Source: an uncultured Nitrospirales bacterium
GTDB lineage: Bacteria > UBA10199 > JADGCS01
DNA: 64,000 nucleotides
NCBI GenBank assembly: GCA_964609965.1
Contig: CAZSTS010000011.1
Coordinates: 5,099-69,098 of the forward strand
Reading direction: 5' to 3'
Below are positions 5,115 through 54,902 of the stretch, piece by piece. Numbering within the stretch: position 1 is the first letter of the stretch; each line of letters starts with the position of its first letter. The notes under the pieces are model-generated. The model saw only the letters and a program-made list of their open reading frames with translations, searched no databases and had not been told where the DNA came from. Position numbers and translations under genes: made by a program.

Positions 5115-6131
5115 ATGCTAGCTATCGAAACCAATACAAACAGCACCTCAAAAGTCATTGAACTCGAAAAACCTCAGATTTCTTCAAAAGAAGTGCTTAT
5201 TCAAACAATTGGTTGTGGTCTCTGTGGCACAGACCTTCTAAAAATCAATCTTAAACTCCTCAAACAACCAACAGTACTTGGACACGAAATCGTGGGCCGC
5301 GTTGTTGAAAAAGGAGACGCTGTTTCAGATTTTGAGCTTGGAGACTTTATCGTTGTTGCTCATCACGCGCCTTGTTTTGAATGTCATTTTTGTCAGCACA
5401 AAAGCTATTCAATGTGTGAAACATTCAAAAAAACAAACTTAGATCCTGGCGGTTTTACAGAATTTGTTCGCATTTCTGAGCTGCATTTAAAACACACTGC
5501 TTTCAAAGTTCCCAAAAGCATGCCCTGGCAAGAAGCCTTATTCACAGAACCTTTGGCCTGCTGTGTGCGATCTGTAGATCAATTAAGTCTATGTAATAAT
5601 GACACAGCGATTGTTATAGGTCTTGGTTCGATTGGTCTAATGATGACAAAACTCCTTAAACGTTTTTCTTGTCACATCATTGGCGTAGACACAGATCCAG
5701 CCCGCTGTGAAAACGCAATAAAATATGGCGTGGATGAAGTTTTCTCTAATGTAGACAGTGCCTTTGTCGACAGCATAAAAAAAGCCTCGAACAATCGCGG
5801 CGCTGATGGCGTTGTCTTTAGTGCTGGTCCAGCTACAATGCTCAATGAGTCTCTTAGCTGGATTCGAAATGGGGGATTTATAAACCTCTTTAGCCATCTT
5901 GCAGGAGAGATCGGCAATATAGACACATCAGAGCTTTATCACCGCGAATTACAAATTATCACATCCTACTCTGCTTCTCCCGAATCTTTGAAAAAGTCTT
6001 TTGAAATACTCCGTGATGAAAACTTAAACCTAAGAATGATGTTCGCTGAGCCCTATTCGTTGAATGATTTTGAAAAAGCTGTAAATGATATGAATGAAAG
6101 ACGTGTTTTAAAAGCCCTGATTGAGTTCTAA
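5115..6131 (+). CDS. Zn-dependent alcohol/polyol dehydrogenase (MDR family)
   Basis: CGTD, GHE, structural-Zn motif CxxCxxCx7C, EPLAC, GxGxxG. Confidence 0.9.
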   Translation: MLAIETNTNSTSKVIELEKPQISSKEVLIQTIGCGLCGTDLLKINLKLLKQPTVLGHEIVGRVVEKGDAVSDFELGDFIVVAHHAPCFECHFCQHKSYSMCETFKKTNLDPGGFTEFVRISELHLKHTAFKVPKSMPWQEALFTEPLACCVRSVDQLSLCNNDTAIVIGLGSIGLMMTKLLKRFSCHIIGVDTDPARCENAIKYGVDEVFSNVDSAFVDSIKKASNNRGADGVVFSAGPATMLNESLSWIRNGGFINLFSHLAGEIGNIDTSELYHRELQIITSYSASPESLKKSFEILRDENLNLRMMFAEPYSLNDFEKAVNDMNERRVLKALIEF

Positions 6132-52491: not shown

Positions 52492-52566
52492 TGTGCAAAT
52501 CAATTACGCCATCAAATAATATTAACCCAACTTGATGTCATCTAGATTTTTGACTATAGGGACCTC

Positions 52567-52962
52567 ATGTTAATCAAACGTCATTTTCACTCTGTTCTTA
52601 TTTTATTTCTTATTATTTTCCTCGCCCTCATCATGACAGATTGCGGTGGCAGAAAAACTATCTCTTATAAGAGATCTTTTACAGGCAATGCTTCTTGGTA
52701 TGGAAAAAGATTTCATGGAAGAAAAACCGCCAATGGCGAACGTTTTAACATGTATAAAATGACGGCCGCACACAAGAAGCTGCGATTTGGCACGATCCTC
52801 TTGGTAACCAATTTGAAAAACGGCAAATCTGTGAAAGTGCGTGTAAATGACAGGGGGCCTTATGCTCGAGGCCGAGTGCTTGACCTGTCCTATGCAGCAG
52901 CCAAAAGACTGGGCTTTATCCAGAGTGGCCATACAAGAGTAAGGGTAAAAGTCCTTAGATGA
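52567..52962 (+). CDS. rlpA: RlpA-family lytic transglycosylase lipoprotein (DPBB domain)
   Basis: GNASWYG..FHG..TANGE, TAAH, VNDRGP, DLS.AAA. Confidence 0.92.
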
Positions 52963-52980
52963 AAAAAACAATGATTATCC

Positions 52981-53008
52981 GTAGGGGTACGGCGTGCCGT
53001 GCCCCTAC
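52981..53008. repeat. GTAG-type REP palindrome
   Basis: GTAGGGGTACGGC-GT-GCCGTGCCCCTAC, near-perfect hairpin. Confidence 0.75.
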
Positions 53009-53041
53009 ATCAAACAATGAACTAAAACGAAAGAAGGTATT

Positions 53042-53284
53042 ATGAATTCATTTGAAACCGATAACACCGATAACATGGCGCCTGCTACTACAACAGATTC
53101 GTTTCAGGTAGACACACTTGTTGTTGTCTCCAAGGTCAAAGCCTTTATTAAAGAACAGTCTGGATTTAACACAGGCAAATGCGCCATTGATGCCATCTCA
53201 CAAGCTGTGGCTAGAGAATGTGTAAGAGCTATCGAACAAACACGTGAGGCAGGCAGAAAAACAGTGATGGGAAGAGATTTCTAA
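53042..53284 (+). CDS. Bacterial histone-fold protein (Bd0055-like) with an acidic N-terminal extension
   Basis: LVVVSKVKAFIKEQSGFNTG..AIDAIS..V...C.RA....REAGRKTVMGRDF parallels Bdellovibrio Bd0055 (LVVTSKVKKLIKE...GRKTVMARD); AGAAGG ribosome-binding site. Confidence 0.9.
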   Translation: MNSFETDNTDNMAPATTTDSFQVDTLVVVSKVKAFIKEQSGFNTGKCAIDAISQAVARECVRAIEQTREAGRKTVMGRDF

Positions 53285-53320
53285 TCCCTCTCTCATCACC
53301 CATCACTCATCGCTCATTAC
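53285..53320. repeat. Heptamer array between the histone and astB stop codons
   Basis: CTCATCA CCCATCA CTCATCG CTCATTA. Confidence 0.7.
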
Positions 53321-54669
53321 TTTCTTTGAAACTCATACACAGACCCTAGTTTTAAAATCTGTGTAAGTTCATCTAATGCAGTGCGGCCCTCTAACAAAAG
53401 CTGATAATCAGCCAGATCTTCAGGAATAAGTTTATCACGATAGTGTTTTTCTACCCAAGAAGTGAGTTTTTGATAAAGTTTTTCATTAAAGAGAACAGAT
53501 TGGTTTATGCTTTTGAGCTCCTCTTCTGTTAAAACAACCCTAAGCCTTAAACAAGCAGGCCCTCCCCCATTTTTCATACTTTGCCTTAAGCCCAAGTAAT
53601 GTACTTCTGATATTGGATTTTCTGAACTACCCACAATTCTATCAATACATTTTCCTACAATCTTATTCTCCCTACACTCTTCAGGAGCAATCAAGGCCAT
53701 TTGAGAATCATTCACATCGACAAGTTGCGAGTTAAACAAAAATGTCTGAACAGCCTCTGATAATGTAACTTCATGAACTCTGACACTCACTAAGCAAAGG
53801 TTTTTTCCACTCACTTTCTTATACTTTTCTTGAAGCTCTCCAACAACCTTCTGAGTGTCTAAAAAAGCCTGCTCATGATAAAGTAAAACATGCTTGTTTC
53901 CAACAGCAATCATATCATTATGAAAAACCCCGGCATCAATAGCAATGGGACTCTGTTGTGCAAGCACCACATGATTTGGATTCAGACCATGCATTCTCGC
54001 AATGGTTTGAACGGCCTCATAAGTTTGTCTGGCAGGAAAATATTTGGGCTTAGGCATGGCTTGTCTAAACATGTATTTGCCAAAAACAAAAAACTCCATG
54101 CCAGGCTCCCCGTAAAAAGAACAAAAACGCATGTGATTAGACGCCCCCTCATCACCAAAGGTTTGGCAAGAAGGCAATGCTGGATGATGAACAAAATAAC
54201 GCTCGTCATTGAAAACAGCCTTAAAAACCTGCCTGGTTGTTTTACGCTCAAAAGAACGATGAAATTTATTAGAAAGATTGGCTGGAGTAAAATGGGTTTT
54301 GCCATCTTCTGTGTCAACAGAGGGAGATGTTGTCGCTGCATTCGCTGTCCACATCGCCGCAGCAGAAGAACACGCAGACAAGATAGTAGGGTTTTGTTTT
54401 GAAGCCTTGTTGATGACATCTTCATCCGTTCCTGTAAAACCAAGCCTTCTCAAGACAGGAACAGACGGCCTCTCGTGTGGTGGCAAAACAGCCTGTCTAA
54501 GGCCCCTATCAGCTAAAAACTTCATTTTTTTTAACCCCTGTAAGGCAGCTTCTTTTGGATTAGAAAATTCTTCGGTAAAAGTGATAGGAGCAATATTCCC
54601 TGGGGATAATTTACAATAATTATGAGTAGGGCCAACAAGGCCGTCAAAGTTGATTTCGTGGGCTATCAT
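53317..54669 (-). CDS. astB: N-succinylarginine dihydrolase
   Basis: E.NFDGLVGPTHNY, MWTANAAT, GDEGA.NH, GVFHND, NGGGPACLRLRV; start moved to ATG 54669. Confidence 0.93.
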   Translation of the reverse strand: MIAHEINFDGLVGPTHNYCKLSPGNIAPITFTEEFSNPKEAALQGLKKMKFLADRGLRQAVLPPHERPSVPVLRRLGFTGTDEDVINKASKQNPTILSACSSAAAMWTANAATTSPSVDTEDGKTHFTPANLSNKFHRSFERKTTRQVFKAVFNDERYFVHHPALPSCQTFGDEGASNHMRFCSFYGEPGMEFFVFGKYMFRQAMPKPKYFPARQTYEAVQTIARMHGLNPNHVVLAQQSPIAIDAGVFHNDMIAVGNKHVLLYHEQAFLDTQKVVGELQEKYKKVSGKNLCLVSVRVHEVTLSEAVQTFLFNSQLVDVNDSQMALIAPEECRENKIVGKCIDRIVGSSENPISEVHYLGLRQSMKNGGGPACLRLRVVLTEEELKSINQSVLFNEKLYQKLTSWVEKHYRDKLIPEDLADYQLLLEGRTALDELTQILKLGSVYEFQRK

Positions 54670-54902
54670 GCGAAATGTATAGCATTTATAATAGATAAAT
54701 TTCAAACAACAAGAACCAAAAGCCTAGTAATCTCTTGGGATTTGAGATTTGGAATTTGGAATTTTGCCCAATGAAAGACAGGGCTTTACGTCGAAAATAA
54801 GATATGATACCCATCCGACACGCCGTTAAATTATAATAGTTATCATGTGGTTTTTTTGACTGAATTTAGTCGATTTTTTTATCAAACAGGGAGGAAAGTA
54901 AG

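Follow-up and report, generated by a model that had tools for sequence, protein, structure and literature searches.

A bacterial histone with a predicted acidic N-terminal tail and a fold akin to that of ZZ histones

A gene in the 64,000-nucleotide stretch of DNA analysed here (the window), which comes from a marine Bdellovibrio-like bacterium, encodes what is, judging from sequence matches and a structural model, a histone-fold protein. It belongs structurally with HBb/Bd0055, has a truncated α3 and is predicted to begin with an acidic N-terminal tail. According to the explanation that we favour, to which as a whole we assign a probability of roughly 0.5, this protein stems from the lineage of the ZZ histones (Bd3044-like), has lost the ZZ zinc finger together with the basic proximal linker, is translated from Met1, and carries a disordered, net-negative tail that tunes its binding to DNA. 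The locus is laid out as follows (window coordinates):

52567..52962, + strand: upstream neighbour, RlpA-like lipoprotein with a DPBB_1 domain (Pfam PF03330, E 1.5e-27), separated from the histone gene by a 79-nt gap
52981..53008, no strand assigned: REP-like, GC-rich palindrome of 28 nt, separating the rlpA-like and histone genes (RNA fold -24.3 kcal/mol, z -3.6)
53033..53038, + strand: Shine-Dalgarno-like GAAGGT, 3 nt before the ATG of Met1 (from the sequence)
53042..53284, + strand: gene for the histone, 80 codons followed by a TAA stop (ORF list, PDB sequence match, AF2 model and Foldseek)
53042..53107, + strand: N-terminal tail, codons 1-22; acidic, Ser/Thr/Asn-rich, no Lys/Arg, predicted disordered
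53057..53074, + strand: 9-nt tandem duplication, exact and in register with the codons (ACCGATAAC x2); its product is TDN-TDN, residues 6-11 (sequence, TRF)
53075..53077, + strand: in-frame ATG of Met12, the sole alternative start upstream of the fold
53108..53281, + strand: histone-fold core, codons 23-80 (HBb alignment; pLDDT 92-96)
53292..53321, no strand assigned: G-poor heptad tandem repeat CTCATCA, 4.3 copies, directly after the stop codon (TRF)
53317..54705, - strand: convergent downstream neighbour, succinylarginine dihydrolase AstB (Pfam PF04996, E 1.2e-200)

The original prediction of a Bd0055-like core ending in RKTVMGRDF was borne out. When the 80-aa translation was searched against PDB sequences, core residues 23-79 matched the HBb/Bd0055 chains 8cmp_A and 8fvx_A (E 4.4e-11 and 6.2e-11, respectively), a relevant point in that sequence clustering was used to define the bacterial-dimer category. 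HBb entries also took the top five places when Foldseek compared the AF2 model with the PDB (TM on target 0.71-0.76, rmsd of about 2 A over 54 columns; E 2e-4 to 5e-4). The model contains helices at residues 21-40 and 46-69 and a one-turn helix at 77-79, that is, a single fold with a shortened α2 and the short α3 (3-4 residues) of HBb-type histones. The RKTxxxD motif with its RD clamp (R72-K73-T74...R78-D79) and the α1 lysines K31/K33/K37 correspond to R51-K52-T53, R57-D58 and K10/K12/K16 of HBb; in PMC11390915 the conserved α1 lysines of bacterial dimer histones occupy logo positions 11, 13 and 17. Eight of the ten DNA-contact residues of HBb, as named in PMC11317129, are kept in this core, N43 being among its conserved elements, as is the R72/D79 clamp, and the two altered positions are T8, here V29, and S24, here G45 (alignment to 8cmp_A/8fvx_A). 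HBb of Bdellovibrio bacteriovorus (8cmp, 8fvx, 9ezz, 9f0e) is therefore the best match in both sequence and structure, with the same single fold, one-turn α3, RKT...RD motif and DNA-contacting Ser/Lys of α1 and a similarly positive core charge. However, HBb begins only 3-4 residues before its fold, whereas the protein encoded in the window has 22 additional residues of acidic tail, and its nearest relatives are ZZ histones rather than HBb orthologues. The face-to-face (FtF) histones, formers of HLp/HTkC-type tetramers, are more distant, the match to HLp of Leptospira (9qt0_A) being far weaker in both the sequence search (E 1.2e-5 vs 4.4e-11 for HBb) and Foldseek (1.6e-2 vs 2e-4). No Pfam family, including CBFD_NFYB_HMF (PF00808), was detected in the ORF at E up to 1, and its score against the NCBIfam archaeal histone model NF043032 (17.5 bits) lies below the curated cut-off of 50.

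The ORF is a genuine gene. This part of the window is identical in contigs from four sequencing runs of two studies, some of which may represent the source sample, with no variant, indel or joint affecting the gene in these DNA contigs, and the identical protein is encoded on 14 contigs. No RNA runs containing positions 52500-53800 were listed.

ZZ histones were described as a class by Schwab et al. 2024 (PMC11390915), and in relatives of the present organism they consist of a zinc finger, a linker and a histone fold within 164-183 aa. The best seven non-self matches of the window protein among 60 related genomes all lie in open frames of this length, each with a Cys/His-rich N-domain, and in 26 ZZ proteins the eight ligands C12, C15, C28, C33, C43, C47, H51 and H57 are invariant. 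In the model of the same-genus ZZ histone the C-terminal part matches HBb and the N-terminal part weakly matches the ZZ domains of p62 and HERC2 (E 0.06-0.4). The fold encoded in the window is most like the folds of these proteins: its core is 74% identical to that of the same-genus ZZ histone, with which it shares the ...NT(S/G)xC...GRKTVMGRD features and a Ser/Thr-rich segment before the fold; it scores higher with an HMM of ZZ cores than with one of tail-less cores (102.4 vs 98.0 bits, a margin of only 4.4); and in a 65-row tree it falls into a 41-row group (SH-aLRT 83) containing 12 of the 13 full ZZ forms, a branch that derives from 58 columns, bears no star, is unresolved inside and is used with caution. 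A larger tree, built with FastTree from 242 fold sequences, failed to resolve, with stars on 14 of its 236 branches, and was set aside. Kinship with the ZZ lineage thus receives moderate, not decisive, backing from the sequence comparisons. Hocher et al. 2023 (PMC10627809) say of Bd3044 no more than that it is a histone of greater length and lower conservation; its placement in the ZZ class is our own and goes beyond that source.

What distinguishes the window protein from its ZZ relatives is the N-terminal part. No Cys or His occurs before residue 47 of the ORF, so the C4 + C2H2 finger is missing, as is the basic linker motif (K/R)(K/R)x(I/V)(I/V), and neither a single ZZ histone query nor a 26-row profile retrieved a ZZ domain anywhere in this genome, which is 98.4% complete. 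Gene order is not shared with relatives, whose histone homologues do not have the genes for FtsY, the RlpA-like protein and AstB beside them. In one genome of the same genus the four genes are spread over four separate short contigs, and a convergent ORF, which we take to encode signal peptidase I, comes after the rlpA-like gene; in another relative (G001) ftsY precedes a different gene from that in the window. Since gene order is not shared, orthology with the same-genus ZZ gene is argued from similarity alone.

The gene is flanked by repeats of kinds that recur in the genome. The palindrome was found at 12 forward and 12 reverse places with up to 3 mismatches (control: 0) and at 16 sites with a looser pattern, and the 11-mer CATCACTCATC of the heptad repeat occurs 23 times. 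Neither a sigma-70-like promoter on the + strand between 52400 and 53900 nor, by scan, a terminator for the histone gene was found. A non-conserved position between two repeat elements, the lack of a promoter-like site and the loss of a domain could all be expected of a truncated ZZ-histone gene that is non-functional or silent. We nevertheless regard such a decaying remnant as highly improbable: the frame is intact, the core is modelled with a pLDDT of 92-96, the DNA-contact residues and clamp are retained as described, a Shine-Dalgarno (SD)-like motif precedes the gene, its sequence is the same in contigs of all four runs, and its divergence from the same-genus ZZ histone core is about that of the second histone of this genome, which is 77% identical to its same-genus counterpart.

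Translation most likely begins at Met1, yielding a protein of 80 residues. Met1 and Met12 are the only ATG, GTG or TTG codons of the open frame upstream of the fold; Met1 is in frame with no stop before Met12, and GAAGGT precedes it, other genes of the window having GGAG, GAGG or AAGG 5-9 nt upstream of their starts. The 18 nt before Met12, namely the two copies of ACCGATAAC, contain no SD-like motif. In four metagenomic loci encoding short tailed forms (L085, L097, L107 and L112) an in-frame stop lies shortly upstream and an SD-like motif stands at the distal Met, and in relatives whose acidic tails are longer the SD is likewise at the distal Met. Initiation at Met12 would instead produce a basic 69-residue histone with an 11-residue Thr-rich stub, codons 1-11 forming a 5' leader. 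Consistent with this, similarity to the same-genus ZZ gene in a DNA alignment is kept up to about codon 12-14 and lost upstream, and in the alignment Met12 falls where the conserved basic linker motif ends. The study of HLp judged the shorter of two annotated N-termini by SD position (PMC12701072), which calls for caution, as long N-termini can be annotation artefacts. Taken against the placement of the SD-like motifs here and in relatives, and against a 9-nt duplication that preserves both the frame and the codon register, a start at Met12 appears unlikely. The long and short isoforms envisaged earlier accordingly divide: the motif before Met1 speaks for the long form, whereas the short form lacks one. 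The start codon used inverts the calculated net charge (pI 5.3 vs 8.8): the full-length protein has a calculated pI of 5.27 and a charge of -1.5, the Met12 product a pI of 8.77 and the core by itself 9.24.

The composition of the tail was as the original prediction had read it. Counted directly in the translation, residues 1-24 include five acidic residues (E5, D7, D10, D19, D24), no Lys or Arg and seven Ser/Thr (S3, T6, T9, T16, T17, T18, S20), and codons 1-22 have a calculated charge of -4.5 at pH 7. Only 3 of 2031 N-terminal 22-mers from the long ORFs of this genome, and 0.37% of random internal 22-mers, likewise combine no K/R with 4 or more D/E and 7 or more S/T, a chance test that was devised post hoc. 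The N-terminal 22 residues are predicted to be disordered, pLDDT in the AF2 model being below 50 at residues 1-3 and 9-22; such low values are equally expected of an untranslated or neutral stretch. Beside tails of the HMGB1 type, the charge of this one (-4 over 22 residues) is small. The TDNTDN duplication and the internal Met12 were likewise where the prediction had seen them, the copies of ACCGATAAC lying at 53057-53065 (T6-D7-N8) and 53066-53074 (T9-D10-N11), with a TRF period of 9, 2.1 copies, 100% matches and a score of 38. The duplication is real, yet events of this sort are common in the genome: the 64-kb window contains five exact 9-15-nt tandem duplications, this pair included, where shuffled sequence would lead one to expect 0.3.

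The two halves of the tail appear to differ in provenance. Across 30 ZZ histones, the 12-residue segment leading into the fold contains on average 3.2 S/T and 3.8 P/A/G and is net negative in 18 cases and net positive in 2; the segment from -24 to -13 has a net positive charge in 18. Window residues 11-22 fit this Ser/Thr-rich pre-fold pattern; residues 1-10, by contrast, are acidic where ZZ linkers are basic, and residues 1-11, which hold the duplication and most of the negative charge, have no counterpart in the ZZ linker. Residues 12-22 or thereabouts look like the Ser/Thr-rich distal end of a ZZ linker. The likeness is of low complexity and could be convergent. In the scenario we favour, a ZZ-lineage ancestor would have lost the N-terminal finger and the basic proximal linker, leaving residues ~12-22 as a remainder of the distal linker, and residues 1-11 would have been newly recruited as an acidic cap that the 9-nt duplication lengthened.

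Bacterial singlet histones, and prokaryotic histones more widely, are mostly tail-less according to PMC10627809 and PMC12701072, in agreement with the earlier statement that Bd0055 has essentially no tail; the tails of FtF histones are described as mostly basic in these two sources and PMC11390915 taken as a group. Within the sections of the literature covered, negative tails are described only for archaeal coiled-coil (CC) histones, and none for bacterial histones of the dimer or ZZ type. Metagenomic relatives that have a single fold and lack both a ZZ remnant and the linker motif include 59 whose extension is 10 residues or longer; it is net negative in 40, net positive in 13 and neutral in 6. 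After exclusion of rows in which a Met lies no more than 4 residues from the fold, 32 credible tails were net negative and 8 were not (median length 21 aa); this count should be read in the light of the 'acid-tail' class being partly defined by the feature later counted. The credible tails comprise 20% D+E, 27% S+T and 4.6% K+R, the latter against 11.2% in the ORFs of this genome. Artefacts of gene calling may be included among the 32: at least one of the metagenomic 'short' proteins, P0040, corresponds to an ORF inside a full ZZ gene (L098). A tail unique to this organism was considered and rejected, as net-negative tails recur in these relatives. Relatives keep the net-negative composition of the tail but not its sequence, which is not retained even in the nearest short relative, P0006. 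The comparison shows predicted acidic tails to be recurrent on histones of the HBb/ZZ type, at least one of them apparently having arisen through loss of the ZZ finger.

These data also bear on whether the tail does anything at all. The protein could be an ordinary DNA-bending histone like HBb, its tail a remnant of the ZZ linker with a fortuitous start, tolerated because it is disordered and devoid of effect. The divergence from P0006, the resemblance of half of the tail to a pre-existing linker, the number of similar duplications in the window and the modest net charge all point this way, and we consider such a neutral relic possible, if doubtful. Drift alone does not predict the excess of net-negative over other credible tails, nor their depletion in Lys and Arg on several backbones, and the addition of residues 1-11 raised acidity in a region that is basic in ZZ linkers. 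The recurrence of net-negative tails rather argues that they are translated and kept.

On the favoured reading, that of a tail tuning DNA binding, the fold would dimerise and grip the DNA backbone non-specifically, as HBb does, via S30/K31/K33/K37, N43, R72-K73-T74 and R78. The tail would leave the fold 4-5 residues before the first turn of α1, a DNA contact in HBb, so that the tail and DNA would be electrostatic competitors for the basic ridge, and it would probably also keep dimers from packing closely along DNA. Lower affinity and/or faster exchange would be expected, a tuning and no on/off switch; the auto-inhibition put forward earlier is likewise deduced from the charge and position of the tail. 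A comparable mechanism, intramolecular inhibition by occlusion of the α1 face, has been proposed for the highly negative tails of archaeal CC histones (PMC11390915), which resemble the present tail in being disordered and negative on a histone fold; however, those histones bridge DNA, possess a C-terminal coiled-coil domain, may bear their tails at either terminus and show no tail homology to the window protein. By analogy, in the autoinhibition of HMGB1 and Hfq by acidic tails (PMC10250230 and PMC5606850), a disordered acidic region of the same chain rivals nucleic acid for a basic surface, but the folds are unrelated and the tail of HMGB1 consists of a long stretch of D/E, as opposed to 4-5 acidic residues among Ser/Thr/Asn here. 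Bacterial histones have only recently been shown to be chromatin proteins, and if the tail does tune affinity for DNA, it would represent a simple charge-based autoregulation of a bacterial chromatin protein and offer a handle on the role of the poorly understood ZZ-histone lineage.

Phosphorylation of the tail was suggested as well, and is conceivable from its seven Ser/Thr residues and the eight Pkinase-domain matches in the genome. Hanks-type kinases would modify T16-T17-T18/S20, the added negative charge bringing about regulated release from DNA, and the Ser/Thr content of the relatives' credible tails is in keeping with this. Nevertheless, the tails share no conserved phospho-motif or position, richness in Ser/Thr is typical of disordered linkers in general (the ZZ linker included), and no kinase or FHA gene lies among the neighbours examined, all of which makes a phospho-switch improbable.

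The genome encodes a second histone on another contig (C27:5236-5460), which is FtF-like, has a Lys-rich tail and carries a calculated charge of +13.6. Like the FtF histones with Lys-rich tails, such as HLp, that it resembles, it shares with the window protein the status of a tailed bacterial α3 histone, although the tail charges are opposite. This Lys-tailed protein, and not the window histone, is the one conserved across the genus and family, and the candidate assignment of the window gene as the Bd0055 orthologue or main histone was accordingly discarded. More speculatively, the acidic tail might functionally stand in for the ZZ finger in engaging another tail and bind the Lys-rich tail of the second histone, the two histones forming a charge-complementary pair whose acid-tailed member buffers, chaperones or antagonises DNA wrapping. 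We regard this as a long shot; if true, the pair would constitute a bacterial two-histone regulatory system. A general rule that acid-tailed histones are always paired with basic-tailed ones was rejected: genome G022 contains an acid-tailed histone (L011), and neither histone query found a second histone there. Finally, in several ZZ-histone genes a start codon with an SD-like motif occurs 21-27 codons upstream of the fold. Such genes might produce a ZZ-less, acid-tailed isoform by internal initiation, an isoform that the present genome might have hard-wired.

The 80-codon open reading frame at 53042-53284 on the forward strand encodes, as the original prediction had it, a Bd0055-like core ending in RKTVMGRDF, preceded by an acidic, Ser/Thr-rich tail (residues 1-24 comprise five acidic, no basic and seven Ser/Thr residues). 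The predicted kinship with Bd0055 of Bdellovibrio bacteriovorus (HBb) was borne out by sequence and by structure: residues 23-79 match solved HBb chains with E values of 4.4e-11 and 6.2e-11 (HLp, the face-to-face histone of Leptospira, is matched only at 1.2e-5), and the top five Foldseek matches in the PDB for an AF2 model of the protein are all HBb entries. In this model, built on a 52-row alignment, the fold has pLDDT values of 92-96, while residues 1-3 and 9-22 fall below 50. Pfam returned no family at E values up to 1, and the sole NCBIfam match, to the archaeal histone family, was below threshold. The available text of Hu et al. (PMC11317129) names N22, R57, S9, T53, T8, S24, K10, K12, K52 and K16 as the DNA-contacting residues of HBb. 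Eight of these ten are kept in the alignment (S30, K31, K33, K37, N43, K73, T74 and R78), the two changes being T8 to V29 and S24 to G45, and the R51-D58 clamp described in the same source is retained as R72-D79. Judged by sequence and model, the gene encodes a histone whose structural type is that of HBb/Bd0055, and we are nearly certain that the frame is a real histone gene.

Homologues were matched in 50 of 61 genomes (60 related ones and the window's own). The best seven non-self matches, from one genome of the same genus, one of the same family, two of the same order and three of the same class, sit in open frames of 164-183 aa, each with a Cys/His-rich N-terminal domain, a linker and then the histone fold. 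Eight putative zinc ligands (C12, C15, C28, C33, C43, C47, H51 and H57) are invariant in an alignment of 26 such long relatives. In an AF2 model of the same-genus relative (pLDDT 85), the C-terminal part matches HBb and the N-terminal part weakly resembles the ZZ domains of p62 and HERC2 (E 0.06-0.4). Schwab et al., in the available text of PMC11390915, describe ZZ histones as a ZZ finger with C4 and C2H2 sites followed by a bacterial-dimer-like fold, a class that the long relatives fit by their ligands, model matches and this description. The fold of the window histone is 74% identical to that of the same-genus ZZ histone, and a 65-row tree groups it with 12 of 13 full ZZ forms (SH-aLRT 83, unstarred, unresolved inside the group); a profile of ZZ cores outscores one of tail-less cores by only 4.4 bits. 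Given this small margin and the tree support, placement in the ZZ lineage is likely, short of proof. The first Cys or His of the window frame does not occur before residue 47, and no ZZ domain was found anywhere in the genome (98.4% complete) with one ZZ histone and a 26-row profile as queries. We put at roughly 0.7 the probability that the window histone descends from ZZ histones and has lost their finger.

A short basic motif, (K/R)(K/R)x(I/V)(I/V), located some 12-25 residues ahead of the fold, is common to ZZ-histone linkers (among them those of loci L003-L009 and L034); we did not find it described in the available text of six sources (PMC11390915, PMC10627809, PMC11317129, PMC12701072, PMC11789641 and bioRxiv 10.1101/2025.06.26.661778). 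Several metagenomic 'short' proteins begin just upstream of this motif. The same-genus ZZ-histone gene (L003, on contig C332 of genome G002) is flanked by pairs of small ORFs at 205-971 (65 and 186 aa) and 1728-2710 (139 and 187 aa), which by eye looked like toxin-antitoxin or nucleotidyltransferase-type pairs.

Upstream of the fold, Met1 and Met12 are the only in-frame ATG, GTG or TTG codons and hence the only possible starts. The sequence GAAGGT lies 3 nt upstream of the Met1 ATG, other window genes carrying GGAG, GAGG or AAGG 5-9 nt upstream of theirs. The internal Met12 noted earlier is indeed an in-frame ATG (53075); no Shine-Dalgarno (SD)-like motif was found in the 18 nt preceding it, which are the duplicated ACCGATAAC. 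Translation of the tail from Met1 is quite probable. Among metagenome loci with homologues (80 fetched, 76 parsed), 26 of the 76 carry the zinc-ligand motif and most of the others show an SD-like motif at an ATG located 3-5 codons ahead of the fold. Short forms with acidic tails were seen at four loci (L085, L097, L107 and L112): an in-frame stop lies 19-46 codons ahead of the fold, and a Met 14-25 codons ahead of it is accompanied by an SD-like motif. One 'short' protein, P0040, lies inside a full ZZ gene (L098) as an internal ORF, so some metagenomic short forms may be miscalls. Full-length ZZ-histone ORFs at L098, L134, L095/L096 and L099 contain, 21-27 codons ahead of the fold, an ATG or GTG accompanied by an SD-like motif, and P0040 is precisely an internal frame of this sort. 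Internal initiation there could yield a ZZ-less, acid-tailed isoform, or the motifs could be a chance product of Lys-Glu codons (AAGGAG).

The composition of the tail is unusual for this genome: N-terminal 22-mers with no K/R, at least four D/E and at least seven S/T occur in 3 of 2031 long ORFs (a post hoc test). The predicted 9-nt duplication, ACCGATAAC twice in tandem at 53057-53074, is exactly codon-aligned and gives TDN-TDN at residues 6-11. It is real but not special, being one of five exact tandem duplications of 9-15 nt in the 64-kb window (0.3 expected from shuffles). These have units of 9-10 nt and lie at window positions 533, 2238, 25446, 36134 and 53057; this genome seems prone to short tandem duplication.

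Aligned at the DNA level with the same-genus ZZ gene, the window gene is similar up to about codon 12-14, and similarity is lost upstream. Across 30 ZZ histones, the 12 residues preceding the fold average 3.2 S/T and 3.8 P/A/G, with a net negative charge in 18 proteins and a net positive one in two; further out, residues -24 to -13 carry a net positive charge in 18 of the 30 proteins, because the basic motif lies there. Window residues 11-22 (one acidic, no basic, four S/T, three P/A/G) match the distal-linker pattern, and residues 1-10 hold three acidic and no basic residues at the position where ZZ linkers are basic. About half of the tail would thus be leftover ZZ linker and the other half a newly recruited acidic cap, one aspartate of which would have been supplied by the 9-nt duplication. 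As the linker similarity is of low complexity, this two-part origin is only plausible.

Conservation of the tail was examined among 242 classified single-fold homologues (14 locus rows hand-corrected). The metagenomic extensions of at least 10 residues, without ZZ remnant or linker motif (n = 59), comprise 40 net-negative, 13 net-positive and six neutral ones. Rows with a Met at most 4 residues from the fold, likely over-extended calls, were dropped, leaving 32 net-negative rows and eight others; since the class is partly defined by the feature counted, these figures describe the pattern and are no test of it. Median tail length among the 32 is 21 aa; D+E make up 20% of the residues, K+R 4.6% and S+T 27%. 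Acidic tails are attached to several different backbones, some ZZ-like and some HBb-like. By sequence, then, acidic tails are recurrent among single-fold relatives.

Bacterial dimer and ZZ histones are already catalogued, so the acid-tailed histone is not new as a kind. The available text of PMC11390915, PMC10627809 and PMC12701072 describes bacterial or prokaryotic histones as largely tail-less or basic-tailed. In the literature on tails, comprising the accessible parts of the six sources named for the linker motif plus full-text searches, archaeal coiled-coil histones were the only ones for which we found negative tails described; other such tails may appear in the supplementary figures of PMC11390915.

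The calculated charge of the core alone is +2.7 (pI 9.24) and that of the tail -4.5; the full chain from Met1 is acidic (pI 5.27), the Met12 product basic (pI 8.77). According to the accessible portions of the respective papers, T8, S9 and K10 in the first turn of HBb helix alpha1 contact the DNA minor groove (PMC11317129), and dimers in a Bd0055 filament model exchange N-terminal residues (PMC10627809). In the window protein, the tail departs from the fold immediately ahead of the corresponding turn of alpha1. Because of this exit beside the DNA-contacting turn, together with the N-terminal exchange of Bd0055, we favour a mechanism in which the tail would compete electrostatically with DNA for the basic ridge and would also hinder close packing, acting overall as a tuning device. 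As far as the available text of PMC11390915 goes, Schwab et al. propose the same mechanism for archaeal coiled-coil histones with negative tails, and acidic tails competing for a basic surface are likewise known from HMGB1 and Hfq (available text of PMC10250230 and PMC5606850). That the tail measurably modulates DNA binding is inferred tentatively, at somewhat less than even odds.

A second histone-fold gene, the only other one found in the genome, lies on contig C27 at 5236-5460 (locus L002, 1492-1719). Its 75-aa product, with a calculated charge of +13.6, bears a Lys-rich tail at the N terminus. HLp, a tetrameric face-to-face histone, is the best solved match (E 7.2e-7), and the product is 73-77% identical to proteins of three other family genomes. 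The tails of the two histones are opposite in charge. Histone sets differ within the family among the genomes searched.

Histone sets in genomes of the family (two queries, draft genomes; absence of a gene is not thereby proven)
Window's genome (G000): acid-tailed and Lys-tailed histones
G002 (same genus): ZZ and Lys-tailed histones
G001 and G004: Lys-tailed histone only, among those found
G003: ZZ histone only, among those found

The gene order around the histone gene is not common to relatives in the loci compared.

Features around the histone gene
+ strand, same strand as the histone gene, ending 79 nt upstream of it: RlpA-like gene
52981-53008, between the RlpA-like and histone genes: perfect GC-rich palindrome of 28 nt (GTAGGGGYACGGCGYGCCGTGCCCCTAC type)
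53292-53321, directly 3' of the histone stop codon: G-poor heptad tandem repeat CTCATCA, 4.3 copies
Downstream of the histone gene, convergent: astB

A loose pattern finds the palindrome at 16 sites in the genome, which look intergenic by eye; the element is REP-like, and the GC content of the genome is 40%. An 11-mer of the heptad repeat, CATCACTCATC, occurs 23 times in the genome, and inspection by eye shows a G-poor heptad repeat directly adjoining the palindrome at about 5 of its 16 sites. The histone gene is thus flanked by two elements that lie side by side elsewhere in the genome, and these may be a trace of how it reached its non-syntenic position. Four sequencing runs, belonging to two marine or seawater studies, have contigs with the histone stretch, all without any difference; some of the runs may be the source sample, and some of the contigs bridge the rlpA-histone junction. 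The identical protein is found on 14 contigs, the sequencing runs with the DNA are marine, and the best named relative is a Bdellovibrionales MAG.
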